The notes under the pieces were generated by a model. It saw nothing but the letters and a program-made list of their open reading frames with translations. It was not told where the DNA came from and did not search any database. From NCBI RefSeq assembly GCF_056712565.1, contig NZ_CM160072.1: a stretch of DNA of 64,000 nucleotides; one strand, written 5' to 3'. This document shows, piece by piece, positions 21,619-37,517 of this stretch. The first letter of the stretch is position 1. Every line of letters begins with the position of its first letter. The translations under genes and the position numbers were made by a program.

Positions 21619-21937
21619 AGTAAAACCTGGCATGTATTGATTAATAGTTGGCCGAAGCCGTTCTAGGTTTGCGTTGCGTTTGAGGAGGTAAATTGACCGC
21701 TATCCTGCAGTGATGTTGCCAGAGTTACGCGCGCGTAAAGTAAGGTAAATAACTGAGTGGTTATTTTAGGGACGTAAGCGGTCAGGAATGGCGGTGAGCG
21801 GCAAAGGCGTCGTTTAAGTGACCATAAATATGTGATTTATATCACATATTTATATTGCGAATAATTTATGTAAATAATGGCTTTTTAAATTCAGGGGGTG
21901 AATAAAATTACTCGGCGTCATCTCCGCGGGATTTTCA

Positions 21938-23660: not shown

Positions 23661-23693
23661 CCGGATGAGTATTTCATCCGGCGTTTTTATTAT
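23661..23693 (+). terminator. Rho-independent terminator downstream of tsr
   Basis: Hairpin CCGGATGA / TCATCCGG followed by a T-rich tract (CGTTTTTATTATT). Confidence 0.7.
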
Positions 23694-24964
23694 TAAACCA
23701 GGAACAGTGAAATCGCCGGGATATATGTCACCAGCATTAGCATTAACAGTAGAGCCGCCAGTAGGGGCAGGGATTGTTTAAAGAAATTTCCCACCGAAAC
23801 TTGCGTGATATTACATACCAGCAGCATCACGGTACCTACCGGTGGCGTGAATGCGCCAATCGACAGGTTGAAGATCATGATGATGCCAAAATGCACCGGA
23901 TCGATGCCAAAGTGTTCGACCACCGGTTTTAATAGTGGTACCAGGATCAGCAAAATGGCGTTTCCTTCCAGAAACATCCCCAGCGTCAGCAGCAATATGT
24001 TGATAATCAACAGGAACATGTATTTGTTTTCGGTCAGCGAAGTCACAAAATTCGCCACTGCGACACCAGCATGTTCCATTGAGAAAATCCATCCCAATGC
24101 GGCGCTGGCCATGATTACCAGCATCACCGATGCGGTTGCGCGTGCCGTTTCGCCCAATGCTTTGACGACATGAGAAATCCGCATTTCACGATAGATAAAA
24201 AAGCCAATCGCCAGCACGATTAGCACCGCTACTGCACCTGCTTCTGTTGGGGTGAAAATGTTAGCGCGAATACCACCCACCACAGCAAAAATGAGGAACA
24301 GCGCAGGCCAGGCCTGTCCCAGCGAGAACACCACCTCTTTGCCCGTAGGCCAGCTTTCACGCGAGGGTTTAGCGTTAGTTTTGCGGGCGACAAGGTAGAC
24401 GGTAAACATCAGTACGACTGCGCATAGCAAACCAGGTACCAGTCCGGCGATAAACATTTTTCCGATAGAGACATCGGCAACCAGACCGTAAATAATCAGG
24501 GCTATTCCAGGCGGTATGATCGGGGTGACTAACGAGCCACCAGCGGTAATGGCGGCGGCAAACGCGCGATTGTAGCCTTTACGTTCCATCTCCGGCACCA
24601 TCATGCGCGACAGCATCGCCGCGTCAGCAAGGTTAGAGGCGCTGACGCCGCCCATCATGGTGCTGACGAGAATGTTTGCCACGCCCAGTCCGCCGCGCAT
24701 TTTCCCCACCAGAACGTTGGCAATGTGCAGGATGCGTTCGGCAATGCCGGTGTAGCTCATTAGTGTGCCGAGCAAGATAAAAAACGGAATTGCCAGCAAT
24801 GATGGGCTTTGCGTTGGCGCGATTAGTCTTTGCACGGCAATTTCAATCGGTACGCTGGAGAAGAATAAAAAGTAAGCGATGATGCCAATAAACATCGCCA
24901 GATAGACCCGAATGTTGAGAAACAAACAGACGATCATTAGCGGAATAATCAATAACCAACTCAT
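23693..24964 (-). CDS. TRAP transporter large permease (DctM family)
   Basis: 423-aa polytopic ORF with DctM-like sequence; 4-nt overlap with the upstream small permease gene; not present at this position in K-12. Confidence 0.85.
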   Translation of the reverse strand: MSWLLIIPLMIVCLFLNIRVYLAMFIGIIAYFLFFSSVPIEIAVQRLIAPTQSPSLLAIPFFILLGTLMSYTGIAERILHIANVLVGKMRGGLGVANILVSTMMGGVSASNLADAAMLSRMMVPEMERKGYNRAFAAAITAGGSLVTPIIPPGIALIIYGLVADVSIGKMFIAGLVPGLLCAVVLMFTVYLVARKTNAKPSRESWPTGKEVVFSLGQAWPALFLIFAVVGGIRANIFTPTEAGAVAVLIVLAIGFFIYREMRISHVVKALGETARATASVMLVIMASAALGWIFSMEHAGVAVANFVTSLTENKYMFLLIINILLLTLGMFLEGNAILLILVPLLKPVVEHFGIDPVHFGIIMIFNLSIGAFTPPVGTVMLLVCNITQVSVGNFFKQSLPLLAALLLMLMLVTYIPAISLFLV

Positions 24965-25434
24965 TGCATTTTGTCTCCGCTATCGGATTGTTTTGTATCG
25001 TTTATTAACCAGTAGAGGGTATAAATAGCCGTTGCCAGTGCGCCGACAGGGACCGCCAGATCGATCCAGAACCAGGAAACTTTCAGAATTTGTGTCACTT
25101 TAAACTGCGCCATTTCGGCTAGTCGGTAGCCCAGCCAGGCCATATAAAGCAGCAGTGCGATGGAGAGAAGGGCGACCAGTACTGCAATAACACGCCTGAG
25201 TTTGCCTGGAAGCATCTCCATCAGGAAGGGAATGGTCAGGTGCGCCCTGTCACGTTCCGCCACCACTCCACCTAACATCACCACCCAAATCATCAGCATT
25301 CCCGACATTTCTTCTGTCCATTGAAGCGGTTGGCCGATGAAATAACGCATAAATACCGCTCCAATTGTCACCACAACCAGAACGAATAGCGCAAAGGCAG
25401 CACTAAATTCTGCCACTTTGCCAAAAAGACGCAT
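24961..25434 (-). CDS. TRAP transporter small permease (DctQ family)
   Basis: 157-aa ORF with four predicted TM helices, located between the SBP and large-permease genes. Confidence 0.8.
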   Translation of the reverse strand: MRLFGKVAEFSAAFALFVLVVVTIGAVFMRYFIGQPLQWTEEMSGMLMIWVVMLGGVVAERDRAHLTIPFLMEMLPGKLRRVIAVLVALLSIALLLYMAWLGYRLAEMAQFKVTQILKVSWFWIDLAVPVGALATAIYTLYWLINDTKQSDSGDKMQ

Positions 25435-25497
25435 GAAACCTCCTGTTAGTGCGTGTCCTGCCTAAGAGAGATGAGGCAGGACGCTGAGCATTAATGC

Positions 25498-26469
25498 TTA
25501 TTGCAGTTGCTGTTGAATGGTTTCGTACAGACCTGGTGTCCATTCCGGGAATTGAGAGTAAACTTCGCGTGCTTTCTTCTGGAATGGTCCAGTATCGGGA
25601 TAGATCACTTCGACGCCGGCTGCCTGCATGGTTTTCAACATTTCGGCATCACGCTCAAGAGTGAGTTTCTGGCTATAGACACCCGCTTCATAGCCGGTCT
25701 GGTGGATCATCTCCAGTTGTTCTGGTGAAAGGGTGCTAAAGAAGGCTTCACCACCTATCCACACTGAGGTATTTGTCAGGTAGTTAACCATTGTCAGATA
25801 TCTTGCCTGCTCATACAGTTTTTGCCCTTGCAGCACTGAAATTGGGTTTTCTACGCCGTCAATAACGCCCTGGGTTAATGCGGGATAAACTTCGCCTAAT
25901 GGCATGGGAGTTGGTGTTGCCCCCATCGCCTGAATGGCTTTTATTTGCATGACGTTATTAGGAACGCGAATTTTTAAACCTGCGAGATCGTCAACGGTGC
26001 GAATGGGTTTTTTCGAAATAATCTGTCGAGTGCCATAGAGATAATTATTCATTACCACATGAATTCCCTTTTTCTTCAGACTTTCATTTTTTTGTTTAAA
26101 CCAGTCGCTTTCATATATTTTGAACAGTTTTTGCGGATCGTCAGTCAGATACGGTCCAAACAAAATCCCCAAATCGGGTTCATAATCGGCAAGAAAAGCC
26201 ACATCACTCAAGGTTATGACATTCATGCCCATCATGGCTTGCTCGGTGACATCCTGTTTTGATCCCAATTGGGAGCTGGGATAGAGCGCAAGTGTTATTT
26301 CGCCATTACTTTTTTTATTTAATAGGTCTGCCCAGTAACGCATGACCACATCCAGGGGTTCTCCAGGGTTATTTTCATAGGCAACTTTTATTGAAATAGG
26401 TTTTGCCTGGATTATTGACGGTAAAAAAAGGGTACTGACAGTAATTAGCATCGCTATTATTTTGCTCAT
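25498..26469 (-). CDS. TRAP transporter periplasmic solute-binding protein (DctP family)
   Basis: 323-aa ORF with N-terminal signal peptide (MSKIIAMLITVSTLFLPSIIQA); first gene of a dctPQM-type operon. Confidence 0.85.
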   Translation of the reverse strand: MSKIIAMLITVSTLFLPSIIQAKPISIKVAYENNPGEPLDVVMRYWADLLNKKSNGEITLALYPSSQLGSKQDVTEQAMMGMNVITLSDVAFLADYEPDLGILFGPYLTDDPQKLFKIYESDWFKQKNESLKKKGIHVVMNNYLYGTRQIISKKPIRTVDDLAGLKIRVPNNVMQIKAIQAMGATPTPMPLGEVYPALTQGVIDGVENPISVLQGQKLYEQARYLTMVNYLTNTSVWIGGEAFFSTLSPEQLEMIHQTGYEAGVYSQKLTLERDAEMLKTMQAAGVEVIYPDTGPFQKKAREVYSQFPEWTPGLYETIQQQLQ

Positions 26470-27138
26470 CTTTACTTACTCCATGCTAAGGAAATAAAAC
26501 TCCAACATTGTTGTCGGGAGTGAAACCTTATGAAAAAGCAGTCATTACTGAAAAGTAGTCAGCGAATAGCAGAATGGCTGCAGATGTATCATAAATTCGT
26601 GCACCGGGTAATACTTTGCTGCTTTTAATCGGTTTTTAATGCATTTTTTGATTGTATATCTTAAAGTTATGTAATGCATGACGTTACAAGGAACACCCTC
26701 TGATGAGTTTAGTTACCGCTGATAAGATCTCTTATTCTGTTGATGATTTATTAAAAATAAAATCATTAATTTGGCTGCGGCCATTTTAAATTGTCAATAC
26801 AGATAAAAACTAAGTGTTGACGCAGAATGGTGGTATCCATTAAATTTATTTAGTGCTGATTTAATACATTTGCTGAACGTATAATTCATGCTGATATTAA
26901 AAGAAAACCGTCATTCACTAAATAACTTGTTCGGCAAGGAAATCAGAGAGTAACGGATGATTCGTTACAACGGGGAAAGGCAGTAAATATTCACGTGGTG
27001 AATTTGTTATCAACTTGAAAACTCATTTTACTGGGTTCCTTCTGATCATGTGAGTGAACGCAGTGATTAATGATTAACGTTAAGTGCTAACCAGAGCGCT
27101 TTTTATGAAGTTAAATTAATAATATCCATTATTTATGA

Positions 27139-28812
27139 ATGAGGAAGCCTGTTTATTATATGGAAATACTTTTAACAATTTTAATTCTTACGTTGGTAGT
27201 ATCATTAACCAGCGTGCTTACACGTCTGTCTCCTGTCCAGATACCACTTCCTTTAATCCAGATTGCCGCTGGCGCAGTACTGGCCCAGCCTATATTTGGT
27301 CTGCATGTGGAATTCAATCCTGAACTTTTTCTCTTATTGTTTATACCACCCCTGTTGTTTGCTGAAAGTTCAAAAATACAACCTAAAGAATTGATCAAGC
27401 ACAGCCGGGAAATTATCAGCCTGGCACTTGTGTTGGTACTAATCACTATTTTTTGTGTCGGCTATGTGATTCATTTACTCTTACCGAATGTGCCGCTCAT
27501 CGCTGCTTTCGCATTAGCCGCCGTGTTGTCGCCTACCGATGCCGTGGCGTTGCTGGGGATTGTCGGGAAAGGGCGTATCAGCAAAAACATCCAGGAAGTG
27601 CTCGAAGGCGAAGCGTTGATGAATGATGCTTCCGGCCTGGTGGCGTTGAAATTTGCTGTTGCAGTGACGATGGGAACGATGGAATTCAGCGTTCATGGCG
27701 CAACCATTGCGTTTTTTGTCGTTGCGTTGGGCGGTATTGCCGTGGGGATCGCTGTTACCTGGTTATATGGTAAAGGGCTGCTGTTGATCAGCCGATATGC
27801 TCACGATGAACCTTCCATTCAGATTGTATTGATGCTTCTGTTGCCGTTTATTGTTTATCTGGTTGCGGAACATTTTGGCTTATCTGGCATTCTTGCCGCT
27901 GTCGCCGCGGGGTTAACAACCAGTCGCATTGGTGTAGTCCACCACGCGCCTATTCGCCTGAGAATTAAAGCTAAAAGTAGCTGGTCGATGCTTGAATATG
28001 TCTTTAACGGCATGGTGTTTCTGATTTTAGGCTTACAACTGCCGGGCATTATTTCGGAATCACTGATCCGTGCAGAAAACGATCCACTGGTGGACACCGG
28101 ATCGCTGCTCCTTGATGTCATTTGGATCTACCTGGCGTTAATGGTTGTGCGCCTGGGCTGGCTTTGGCTGATGCGTCTGTATAGCCGTAAACGACCCGGC
28201 AAACATCCGATGCTGTTTGCTGGATATAAAACGCGTCATATGCTGCTGGCGACCTTTGCGGGGGTGCGCGGAGCTATCACGCTTGCGGGGGTGCTTTCTA
28301 TCCCGTTATTGCTGCCGGATGGCACACCTTTTCCCGGGCGTTACTTGCTGGTATTTCTCGCCACAGGTGTGATCCTCTTTTCGCTGGTTTGCGGCATTAT
28401 TATTCTGCCGTTATTACTGGGGAAAAATGTGGGGATTTTCAGCGATAACCGACAAAAAGAAGAGGAAGCTGCCGATCTGTTTATGGCTAAAATGGCCATA
28501 CTGAGTGTGCAAAAGACCGAGCAACGTTTGCTGCGCGCCAGAACAGAAAACCTCGATAACGAGTTGATTATGGAAACGGGGGCCAGAGTTATCGGTTATA
28601 TGCGACATAGTGAAGAGGATATGTCGCCTAATGATAATTCCCTGCATATGCAGCGTGCGAAGCTGGAAAGAACATTTAATCTGGCGGCGTTAAATGCCAA
28701 ACGCGCGGCTATTTACCAGATGCGCGCAAGGCAAGAAGTCAGTGATGAAACACTGGCAAAAATAGTCAGTGAATTAGATGTGCTGGAAACGTTAATCATG
28801 GATAGCCGATAA
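27139..28812 (+). CDS. CPA1-family Na+/H+ exchanger (NhaP/NHE type)
   Basis: 557-aa ORF; membrane domain with LSPTDAVA and EGEALMNDA motifs, plus a C-terminal soluble domain. The start could be ATG 27139 or ATG 27160. Confidence 0.8.
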   Translation: MRKPVYYMEILLTILILTLVVSLTSVLTRLSPVQIPLPLIQIAAGAVLAQPIFGLHVEFNPELFLLLFIPPLLFAESSKIQPKELIKHSREIISLALVLVLITIFCVGYVIHLLLPNVPLIAAFALAAVLSPTDAVALLGIVGKGRISKNIQEVLEGEALMNDASGLVALKFAVAVTMGTMEFSVHGATIAFFVVALGGIAVGIAVTWLYGKGLLLISRYAHDEPSIQIVLMLLLPFIVYLVAEHFGLSGILAAVAAGLTTSRIGVVHHAPIRLRIKAKSSWSMLEYVFNGMVFLILGLQLPGIISESLIRAENDPLVDTGSLLLDVIWIYLALMVVRLGWLWLMRLYSRKRPGKHPMLFAGYKTRHMLLATFAGVRGAITLAGVLSIPLLLPDGTPFPGRYLLVFLATGVILFSLVCGIIILPLLLGKNVGIFSDNRQKEEEAADLFMAKMAILSVQKTEQRLLRARTENLDNELIMETGARVIGYMRHSEEDMSPNDNSLHMQRAKLERTFNLAALNAKRAAIYQMRARQEVSDETLAKIVSELDVLETLIMDSR

Positions 28813-28982
28813 TTTTATCGCTGCCAGTAATAGGGAATTAAATGATGGCTGAGAGTAATACTTCCAGCATCGTTTATTCCCTATGTATTTCCTTATGGGC
28901 AGAACAATCGCCTGGATTAATACTGCATTAATACAACATAGTGATATAAACCAAGAATCAATGTTTTTAATCTGTACTTAAT

Positions 28983-29888
28983 TTATCGGTGATGTTGCCT
29001 GATGGAACGAATCATTGATTGTTTGGCGGTATCCAGATGGTTTCGCAACGCCGTTATTGCATCTAAATCGCTACGGCAAATCAGGGCGCTGAGAATGGTC
29101 ATATGTTCATCAACAGCAATGATATTGCGCTGTTTGAGATCGCTTTCATCCCATTGATAGTGAAAATGAAAGATCACCGATATAATTTCAAGTGATTGAT
29201 TAAAAAAGATGTTGTCAGCAGCGGATAACAGCATGGCATGAAAATCACGGTCTAATTGAGAAAACATTCGAAAGTTGCTGCCAATGCTGTCGCGCAATGT
29301 CCTGTGACGTTCGAGCATGGTTTTCGCCTGCAACCAGCGAGGGTCATCATCGGGAAGGTTGAGAAAGTGTTGCAGGGAATGTGTTTCGAGCATTTCGCGT
29401 AGCTCAAACAGCTGCTCGGCGTAGGATTGATCGAACTGCTTCATGCTCCATTGGCCGCGCTTTTCGCTTTGAATAAGATTATAACGACCGAATTTCAAAA
29501 GATATTCTCGTACCACTACCGGACTGACGCTTGCCGCTCGCGCCAGCTGAAGTTCGGAAAAGCTTTCTCCGGCGCGTAACTGGCGCAGGTTAATCATGGT
29601 GAAAAATGCCTGCTCGAAAAGACGGTTTTGCTCTTTCAGCGAGGCCGTGATGCAATCAAATCCATCGTTCTGTTCGGGTTTGCGGGCGATAACATAATTT
29701 TTCCCCACCAGGGTGAGCACGCCACATGCGCTTAAATGCTGGAGTATGTGGCGTACCGTAGTGCGACTGATGTTATACATTTCTGCCAGTCCGCTTTGTG
29801 AAGGCAGCGGAGAAGGAATATTGCCCCTCGCCATATCTTCAATCACCTGATTTATGACGCTATGACGTAAATTCTGCGAACGACTCAT
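28983..29888 (-). CDS. lgoR: GntR/FadR-family regulator of L-galactonate catabolism
   Basis: 301-aa ORF with N-terminal winged HTH; divergent from lgoD as in K-12 (yjjM). Confidence 0.88.
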   Translation of the reverse strand: MSRSQNLRHSVINQVIEDMARGNIPSPLPSQSGLAEMYNISRTTVRHILQHLSACGVLTLVGKNYVIARKPEQNDGFDCITASLKEQNRLFEQAFFTMINLRQLRAGESFSELQLARAASVSPVVVREYLLKFGRYNLIQSEKRGQWSMKQFDQSYAEQLFELREMLETHSLQHFLNLPDDDPRWLQAKTMLERHRTLRDSIGSNFRMFSQLDRDFHAMLLSAADNIFFNQSLEIISVIFHFHYQWDESDLKQRNIIAVDEHMTILSALICRSDLDAITALRNHLDTAKQSMIRSIRQHHR

Positions 29889-30026
29889 TCTTCCCTCCAG
29901 TCCGGCATTAAAAGCCGATTTAAAACATTTTTATGCGCGATCATCCGCATATTTTATGGGTAAATTCAGGCGCTCTTATAAATTCGACGATATCTGAAAG
30001 TCATAAAATAAAAGGAGCGGTGAATC

Positions 30027-35663: not shown

Positions 35664-36898
<1,235 letters not shown>

Positions 36899-37517
36899 AA
36901 CTCGCCCTTTGTCATAGACGTGCTGCGTATTGTTCAGATAATGAGAATCCATTTGTATCATGAAGCACGGTTGTTTTGCGGTAGGTTAAGATCAAAATTG
37001 CGCTGATTAATCCTGGTTATCGGGAGATGCTCGGTGATAAAAAGCGAATTATCTCTCGCCGTAAACAAACTATCGCATGAATATTATCACTATAATGAAT
37101 TTGTTATTTGGCCTTTACGAGTCAGGATAATAGATAGCTGGGCGCGTTTTTTTATGTTAACAAGTTAAAACCATCAGATTTTATTGAATAAATATTGATT
37201 GTGTGATTCCCGCACTCTGCGGGAAGAGATATTATTTAATTATAAATTAAATGAATGAGATTTCTGTTTTTCATTAAGTATTTCTAACAACTTAATGTAG
37301 ATATTTTAAATGTCTCCAGGCTATTTCACCAGGTTATCATTTGATGCTAACCTTCTGACACATGCAGTGGAGTTGTTGTGCAGCAGGAGTATGCTGATAT
37401 GAAAGTGAATGCTAAGGATAATTTATTCGCTTAATCTATTAATTTGCTGGAAATATTTAAGGAATGAATGCCTTGAATAAACCATCATGATTTTTAGACA
37501 GTGGATGTGGAGGAAAT

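Follow-up and report, generated by a model that had tools for sequence, protein, structure and literature searches.

An AT-rich gap between a TRAP operon and a Na+/H+ antiporter gene at the lgo locus of Escherichia coli is probably a composite divergent control region

The stretch of DNA that we analysed (the window) comprises 64,000 nt of contig NZ_CM160072.1 from RefSeq assembly GCF_056712565.1, and is 100% identical, over the reported segment, to extraintestinal E. coli strains such as 7/2 and IHE3034. Within it, tsr on the plus strand is followed by a dctM-dctQ-dctP TRAP operon on the minus strand, a gene-free gap, a CPA1 Na+/H+ antiporter gene on the plus strand, lgoR on the minus strand and lgoD on the plus strand. 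In K-12, the space between tsr and lgoR holds the MFS gene lgoT in place of the TRAP operon, the gap and the antiporter gene. The TRAP-antiporter allele is chromosomal and accessory. We found it in 859 of 5426 complete E. coli genomes, where it occurs in a median of one copy and at most two places per carrier genome, and the single match in a plasmid collection was a 4.9-Mb record of chromosome size. Carriers include CFT073, IHE3034 and several O26:H11 strains. Published pangenome statistics contain a pattern in which lgoT avoids siaP, siaT and nhaK (PMC10769857). We read this avoidance as follows: lgoT and the TRAP operon plus antiporter gene are alternative alleles of one slot.

The gap is divergent, with dctP starting at position 26469 on the minus strand and the antiporter gene running away from it on the plus strand. 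The original prediction, which was made from the letters alone, described about 670 bp of AT-rich, non-coding DNA at this place; its description of the gap holds, and its right boundary was off by 21 nt. PGAP places the start of the antiporter gene at ATGGAAATA, the start at 27160 is kept in all orthologues, and an in-frame ATG at 27139 reads ATC in Escherichia sp. E4742. We therefore moved the right edge from 27139 to 27160, so that the gap spans 26470–27159 and is 690 bp long. Its GC content is 33.6%, compared to 51.1% for the window, which makes it the most AT-rich stretch of all. Only 0.19% of the 690-bp windows in the 64 kb are equally AT-rich, every one of them overlapping the gap, and the lowest 200-bp GC value (27.5%, at 26732) also lies inside it. 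The sole comparable region is the yjjP-yjjQ gap at ~36.9–37.5 kb. The A/T tracts pointed out earlier are reflected in the frequency of TpA steps, 9.1 per 100 bp in the gap versus 4.4.

No ORF in the gap is longer than 44 aa and none is conserved across alleles (a 32-aa ORF at 26530, for instance, is shortened in the N50 allele). A Pfam search with eight gap ORFs gave no match at E ≤ 10, and PGAP annotates no feature inside the gap in any genome among the matches listed. The earlier judgement that the gap contains no convincing ORF is thus borne out. The "several short inverted repeats" reported with it are no commoner than chance would have them, with a count of 13 at k=8 versus 9.8 ± 4.3 in dinucleotide shuffles, and we found no excess of direct repeats in the gap.

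The locus exists in Escherichia as three deep allele types: type A, which comprises the window and the O26:H11 alleles (~94–96% identity), type B, found in N50, and type C, found in Escherichia sp. E4742. Between A and B, 55–59% of the synonymous sites in dctP and the antiporter gene differ (dS about 1.0–1.15), so any similarity that remains in the gap reflects constraint. The length of the gap, 679–733 bp, is held across alleles even at a dS of about 1. For diversity within type A, we used 24 distinct haplotypes with clean flanks from a metagenome scan; the pattern used to retrieve them was a 26-nt exact match within the block nearest dctP, and those 26 nt are invariant by construction.

The gap divides into three conserved blocks and two spacers. 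Block 1 (26470–26676, minus strand) is 74–78% identical between type A and types B/C and has a π of 0.0030; with the 26 pattern nucleotides set aside, it contains 3 segregating sites in 181 bp. It is followed by an AT-rich, indel-prone spacer (spacer 1, 26677–26815), in which type A shares 50% identity with the other types and π is 0.0214, with 11 gap columns. Block 2 (26816–26871, plus strand) is 56 bp long and 71–77% identical between A and B/C (77% for the N50 allele), and it has a π of 0, without a segregating site in the 24 haplotypes. Spacer 2 (26872–27049) shows 43–45% identity between types, a π of 0.0334 and indels. Block 3 (27050–27159, plus strand) reaches up to the antiporter start codon, with 65–72% identity between A and B/C and a π of 0.0113.

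Compared between A and B, the constrained blocks retain 72–78% identity and the spacers stand at the level of random alignment, their 43–50% matching the 52 ± 4.5% obtained when shuffled AT-rich sequence was aligned in the same way. Third codon positions of the two flanking genes have a π of 0.0164 among type A haplotypes, a value that spacer 2 exceeds twofold, and segregating sites are distributed differently over blocks and spacers (Fisher p = 1e-5). These comparisons indicate clear purifying selection on blocks 1–3 and neutral evolution of the spacers, which would leave ~46% of the gap (317/690 bp) unconstrained. Comparing deep alleles can split a long AT-rich gap into constrained and neutral parts in this way, and here the split leaves little room for a hidden gene.

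Block 1 shares homology with the spacer between lgoR and lgoT in K-12 and with that between lgoR and dctP in Citrobacter. The K-12 match covers 51 nt, 41 of which are identical to the lgoT upstream region (score 57); none of 500 shuffles scored as well, the maximum being 31. These 51 nt start at a 22-bp box, CATTAAAAACCGATTAAAAGCA (26620–26641, minus strand, facing dctP), which consists of a tandem ATTAAAA repeat with an 11-bp period and falls within the 30 bp of the gap that are best conserved. The divergent region between lgoR and lgoD contains a box that agrees with it at 19 of 22 positions, CATTAAAAGCCGATTTAAAACA (29906–29927, plus strand, facing lgoD), and a box relic, AATTAAGTACAGATTAAAAACA (28962–28983, minus strand), overlaps the lgoR stop codon, as it does in K-12. 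There are only three strong PWM matches to the box in the 64 kb, all of them within the lgo locus. K-12 carries the same box twice, once at the lgoD promoter and once upstream of lgoT, at the 3′ end of lgoR.

We presume that the box is the operator of the L-galactonate regulon. The genes yjjL, yjjM and yjjN have been reported to be induced on L-galactonate, with YjjM (LgoR) as the pathway regulator, and from the co-location of box and lgoR we infer that LgoR is the protein that binds it. In the literature searched, we found no binding site described for LgoR. Two points bear on this assignment: RegulonDB-derived text gives UxuR as a regulator of lgoR, alongside an "lgoRT operon", so a factor other than LgoR could read the box; and the box is a direct repeat, atypical of GntR-family operators, which counts against LgoR. 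Judged by its homology, block 1 as a whole appears to be a control region of the L-galactonate regulon that now drives the TRAP operon.

A degenerate-box scan of ~100,000 species genomes returned 35 matches. Eleven are in unrelated phyla and look like chance; the other 24 are in Enterobacterales, and all but one of these (23/24) lie beside lgoR. In these 23 loci, which belong to Escherichia, Citrobacter, Enterobacter, Klebsiella, Rahnella, Buttiauxella, Pectobacterium and Samsonia, the box occupies one of two places: the gap between lgoR and lgoD, or the 3′ end of lgoR, where LgoT, TRAP-1 or TRAP-3 follows. Directly after lgoR, Citrobacter amalonaticus and a related Citrobacter genome have a TRAP operon whose DctP is 90% identical to the one in the window. 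The spacer between lgoR and dctP in these genomes (~184 bp) aligns over its whole length to block 1 and carries a variant of the box, and there is no antiporter gene. Escherichia sp. MOD1-EC7003 and a further C. amalonaticus strain have a third TRAP type (45–47% DctP identity), again with the box at the lgoR 3′ end. We thus saw four occupants: LgoT, TRAP-1, TRAP-3, and TRAP-1 together with the antiporter gene. Because the box is kept beside lgoR ahead of LgoT and of different TRAP types, it marks a "transporter slot" in which one occupant has repeatedly given way to another. In other words, the control DNA of the regulon stays in place, and different transporters come and go behind the same box.

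The dctP core promoter may be placed in either of two positions relative to the box. A TACAAT −10-like hexamer (26651–26656, minus strand) precedes the box by 9 nt and is kept in types A, B and C; in the N50 allele it forms part of a predicted promoter, CAGACA-18-TACAAT. If this candidate is the dctP promoter, the box would fall at about +3 to +24 and act as a downstream operator. The second option is a weak TATGAT in type A, ~40 nt downstream of the box centre and not kept in B and C; if this −10 were used, the box would be an activator site. The gap contains no CRP site at ≤2 mismatches. Further along, a conserved 9-bp hairpin (26499–26521, minus strand; ACUCC.GACA/UGUU.GGAGU, then a U-rich run) lies ~17 nt upstream of the GGAG ribosome-binding site of dctP (26479–26482, minus strand). 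In type B it carries a one-sided compatible change, C-G to U-G. Taken over its full length, the dctP leader is no more stably folded than shuffled sequence (z −0.74).

On the other side of the gap, promoter prediction, which had been proposed as a check, located a sigma-70-like promoter in block 2, TTGACG-18-TAAATT (26817–26846, plus strand, facing the antiporter gene), with a predicted transcription start site near 26853. The same site was detected in the N50 allele. Across four alleles neither hexamer changes and the 17–18 bp between them does vary, the pattern that would be expected for a real promoter. Its use would give the antiporter mRNA a predicted leader of ~307 nt, in which the first ~20 nt and the last ~110 nt are conserved and the middle is neutral. 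Just downstream of the candidate promoter lies a weakly box-like sequence, TATTTAGTGCTGATTTAATACA (26847–26868, plus strand; PWM 12.1 bits). We considered it as a fourth lgo box and find this doubtful, as its score is tied with that of a coding-region match in the window and it is poorly kept in B and C. Two palindromes are present further downstream. The first, ATTCA-N5-TGAAT (26989–27003), is in spacer 2, and its arms are mostly kept in four alleles, with one arm change in E4742; the second, TTAATGATTAA (27067–27077), is within block 3, which also holds the translation-initiation region.

The antiporter gene and the DNA upstream of it look like an insert. Homology to K-12 stops right after the box relic at the lgoR stop codon, and this point appears to be the junction of the antiporter-bearing insert. 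From the relic to the TRAP box, the segment consists of the inverted antiporter gene and its upstream DNA, and it is insert-like relative to the Citrobacter arrangement. The antiporter is a YjcE paralogue, with 58–60% identity to YjcE orthologues. Its closer orthologues (~77% identity) all have long upstream gaps of 510–750 bp. We considered whether this is a trait of the wider family and rejected the idea, because the YjcE orthologues have gaps of only 150–320 bp. We found no DNA similarity between the E. coli gap and the upstream regions of the ~77% orthologues; those of the Klebsiella/Limnobaculum/L010/Edaphovirga group have their own conserved 70-nt upstream block, distinct from the E. coli group. 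A first scan of genome contigs with antiporter peptide patterns gave no match.

Our preferred reading, to which we assign a probability of roughly 0.6, is that the gap is a composite divergent control region with three functional modules, two spacers and no hidden gene. The dctP-proximal ~200 bp would be the region from which the lgo regulon ancestrally controlled its "transporter slot". LgoR, encoded next to this locus, is the most likely protein to bind the box in it, and induction of the TRAP operon would then accompany that of lgoD. A ~150-nt dctP leader with its small hairpin would lie after the box. The other ~480 bp would have come in with the Na+/H+ antiporter gene, which would be driven from one sigma-70-type promoter ~310 nt upstream of its start codon, with the conserved proximal block in addition. 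Two unconstrained AT-rich spacers would separate these modules. The gap is then an unannotated instance of a familiar object, the composite divergent promoter region, and the complex regulatory architecture that the original prediction anticipated can be named: the lgo-regulon box with the TRAP promoter region, the conserved sigma-70-like promoter of the antiporter gene and the conserved block proximal to it.

Among the closest known systems is the pair of lgo (yjjLMN) control regions of K-12. They share with the gap the slot between tsr and lgoD, the adjacent lgoR, the 22-bp box and about 50 nt of homology downstream of it. Here, however, the box precedes a TRAP (DctPQM-type) operon and not the MFS symporter LgoT, an inverted antiporter gene separates the box from lgoR, and a second, truncated box is found at the lgoR stop codon. 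With the inverted antiporter gene in between, the TRAP operon cannot be co-transcribed with lgoR and requires a promoter of its own. If the composite reading is correct, ~16% of the complete E. coli genomes searched are predicted to possess a Na+-linked TRAP transporter, co-regulated with lgoD, that imports L-galactonate or a similar sugar acid. The solved binding proteins closest to the DctP-like protein are 4OVT (E 6e-147) and 4O8M. The database gives no ligand for either; the group may bind L-galactonate or L-fuconate.

A different main function is possible, though we think it rather unlikely: xenogeneic silencing. According to this explanation, the AT-rich DNA is kept as a platform for H-NS nucleation and spreading, above all the ~480 bp preceding the antiporter gene and the AT-rich 5′ ends of both genes, and both acquired promoters are held off until an anti-silencer or a specific signal arrives. 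The gap has the lowest GC in the window, and it belongs to an accessory locus that replaces lgoT and whose alleles have a dS of about 1. Despite a randomised spacer sequence, GC is 29–37% in all allele types, compared to a third-codon GC of 44–60% in the neighbours, and the conserved length would suit a platform as well. Promoter-like sites are also numerous in the gap (7 versus 3.9 ± 2.0 expected). The only other region of the window that is equally AT-rich, between yjjP and yjjQ, belongs to the yjjQ-bglJ operon, which has been reported as H-NS-repressed. That region (~36898–37516) resembles the TRAP-antiporter gap in being a long divergent gap, ~620 bp versus 690 bp, with a lowest 690-bp GC of 34.2% versus 32.5%. 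Unlike it, the TRAP-antiporter gap sits in an accessory allele and holds a specific regulon box, and of the two it is yjjQ-bglJ for which the literature documents H-NS repression.

The finer sequence features do not favour silencing as the selected function. The gap shows no enrichment of TCGATAAATT, the high-affinity H-NS motif known from the literature: there is 1 match at ≤2 mismatches, compared to 1.7 ± 1.3 in shuffles, and the motif density does not exceed that of the window at large. AT-biased mutation is expected to bring unconstrained DNA to ~30% GC, so the spacers could equally have reached their composition without a silencer, and their diversity, at or above the synonymous level, indicates that no selection acts on their sequence. 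Composition, length and accessory status make it plausible that H-NS binds the gap, and we rate such binding as likely, but it may be incidental; selection for silencing is unproven. Silencing is compatible with a composite control region, and the two explanations are not exclusive.

We consider it very improbable that the gap encodes an unannotated sRNA, as had been suggested, or a structured antiporter leader, such as a riboswitch-like sensor of ions or pH. The ~307-nt leader predicted from the block 2 promoter and the long upstream gaps of the antiporter orthologues in other genera would fit such an element, and cation-transporter genes are known riboswitch targets. The Rfam leaders that respond to cations or pH include the nhaA-I and nhaA-II Li+ riboswitches, the DUF1646 Na+ riboswitch and the alx pH-responsive element, and the gap resembles them in its position upstream of a monovalent cation/proton antiporter gene and in its long putative leader. 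Unlike them, it has no covariance-model match and no significant structure, and most of its leader is neutral; it is not a member of any of these families. At gathering score, Rfam gave no match in six related loci, and a permissive scan of 25500–28000 (E ≤ 10) returned only noise, namely eukaryotic miRNA and snoRNA models with E of 2.9–6.8. The putative antiporter leader folds no better than shuffles (z −0.40), and its neutral middle contains indels. The plus strand of the gap has no terminator-like site. The minus strand has two weak candidates, one at 26968, in a non-conserved spacer, and one at 26517, which is the dctP leader hairpin. The spacers, which would have room for an sRNA, evolve neutrally. 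The lack of DNA similarity to the upstream regions of the ~77% orthologues also speaks against a shared leader element.

It is scarcely credible that the gap is debris, left at a recombination junction by a gene or mobile element that has decayed, with two minimal promoters as its only functional parts: the locus is a replacement hot spot, a box relic marks the junction and almost half of the gap is unconstrained, but the gap ORFs lack Pfam matches, the allele is near-single copy per genome and its one plasmid match is of chromosome size, direct and inverted repeats are not in excess, and the three blocks appear to be under clear purifying selection.

The insert-like antiporter segment also allows a broader conjecture, which we put forward only tentatively. 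The antiporter gene and its AT-rich upstream DNA may form a portable "sodium-recycling" module that inserts beside Na+-coupled uptake systems, and the AT-rich leader may serve as a silencer or ion-responsive switch that ties expression to need. Such a module would allow a proton-energised enterobacterium to run a Na+-dependent transporter, in this case the TRAP transporter of the lgo regulon.

The neighbourhoods of the antiporter orthologues give this conjecture some supporting context. In Klebsiella sp. I138 and in Limnobaculum, a ~77% orthologue is divergent from an unrelated TRAP operon (27% DctP identity). Another orthologue belongs to a sugar-acid cluster that also includes a DASS Na+ symporter, and yet another lies beside MATE pumps on a plasmid-like Edaphovirga contig. 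The persistence of the lgo box, and the way in which antiporters of this subfamily keep turning up next to Na+-coupled transporters, seem to us of more interest than the gap itself.

A single chromosomal slot between tsr and lgoR holds either the TRAP operon together with the antiporter gene (window 23693-28812) or, in K-12, the MFS transporter gene lgoT (L013 4362-5723). The excerpted passages of a pangenome study (PMC10769857) report mutual avoidance of lgoT and siaP/siaT/nhaK, and make no mention of a common locus for these genes.

A relic of an lgoT-type box, the 22-bp sequence of the L-galactonate (lgo) regulon, lies at 28962-28983 on the minus strand, where it overlaps the lgoR stop codon. 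It is found in all three allele types of the locus in Escherichia: A (the window), B (strain N50, L002) and C (Escherichia sp. E4742, L012). In its present position it is antisense to the antiporter gene and points into the 3' end of that gene. Together with the TRAP box (26620-26641, minus strand), the relic forms a pair of diverged 22-bp direct repeats (16/22) on either side of the ~2.3-kb antiporter insert, and this pair could be the trace of an integration via recombination at the box. LgoR (window 28983-29888), which presumably binds the box, exceeds typical FadR-type GntR regulators in length by ~70 aa. Between its GntR helix-turn-helix (residues 26-61) and its FCD domain (residues 159-286) lies a second winged-helix-like region matching Pfam Rrf2 (residues 90-143, 30.8 bits). 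Tandem DNA-binding domains in LgoR might explain why the box takes the form of a direct rather than an inverted repeat.

Alleles of the locus within Escherichia (L002, L012, L009) differ by a dS of about 1. In Escherichia sp. E4742, the antiporter gene is near type A (dS 0.25) and dctP is distant (dS 0.93); in L009, an N50-type gap is joined to an antiporter 91% identical to that of the window. By these comparisons the Escherichia alleles are mosaic, which places recombination breakpoints within the gap or close to it. The metagenome contig L011 (ENA ERZ827177 NODE_3979), which has low coverage, carries a gap that matches that of the window at 98.4% identity, then an antiporter only 68% identical, and beyond it the yjcE neighbourhood (LysR, LrgAB and actP-like genes). 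The contig probably arose as an assembly chimera of the two paralogous loci.

The allele types also differ at the translation start of the antiporter. In types B and C, a 6-codon upstream ORF (MHEDAE*, MHQEAG*) ends 4 nt before the antiporter ATG, and a ribosome-binding sequence, GGAG or GGGG, lies 5-7 nt upstream. In type A (window 27135-27160), both the upstream-ORF stop and the ribosome-binding sequence of the B/C style are lost (GCCTGTTT). The GAGGA closest to the ATG is 14 nt away, which suggests weaker translation initiation of the antiporter in type A. On the other side of the gap, in the dctP leader (26479-26521, minus strand), GGAGU is common to the 3' arm of a hairpin (UUGGAGU) and the ribosome-binding site (AUGGAGU), so that the 5' arm, ACUCC, could pair with either. 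Both copies are kept in types A, B and C. Speculatively, such alternative pairing could be a translational switch.

Elsewhere, antiporter orthologues (~77% identity) adjoin other transporters that are, or may be, Na+-linked. Klebsiella sp. I138 (L004 2177-7650) and Limnobaculum (L007 1912-7433) have an unrelated TRAP operon (27% DctP identity) in this position. One metagenome contig (L010 1-5584) has a DASS Na+ symporter, accompanied by genes for a sugar-acid dehydratase and an aldolase, and an Edaphovirga contig that also carries Rep3/ParA genes (L006 6001-10757) has two MATE pumps. About 400-450 nt upstream of the antiporter start, the first three share a ~70-nt block at 80% identity (L004 5552-5621, L007 5388-5457, L010 693-762) with the sequence TAAAAATAACCACAAAGACATC...TTTGTGG and arms CCACAAA/TTTGTGG; this block bears no relation to any part of the E. 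coli gap.

Second in AT-richness within the window is the divergent yjjP-yjjQ gap (about 36898-37516; lowest 690-bp GC 34.2%), which serves as an internal comparator because the yjjQ-bglJ operon is H-NS-repressed according to the literature. The btsT-tsr intergenic region contains a perfect CRP consensus (TGTGATTTATATCACA) at 21831-21846.
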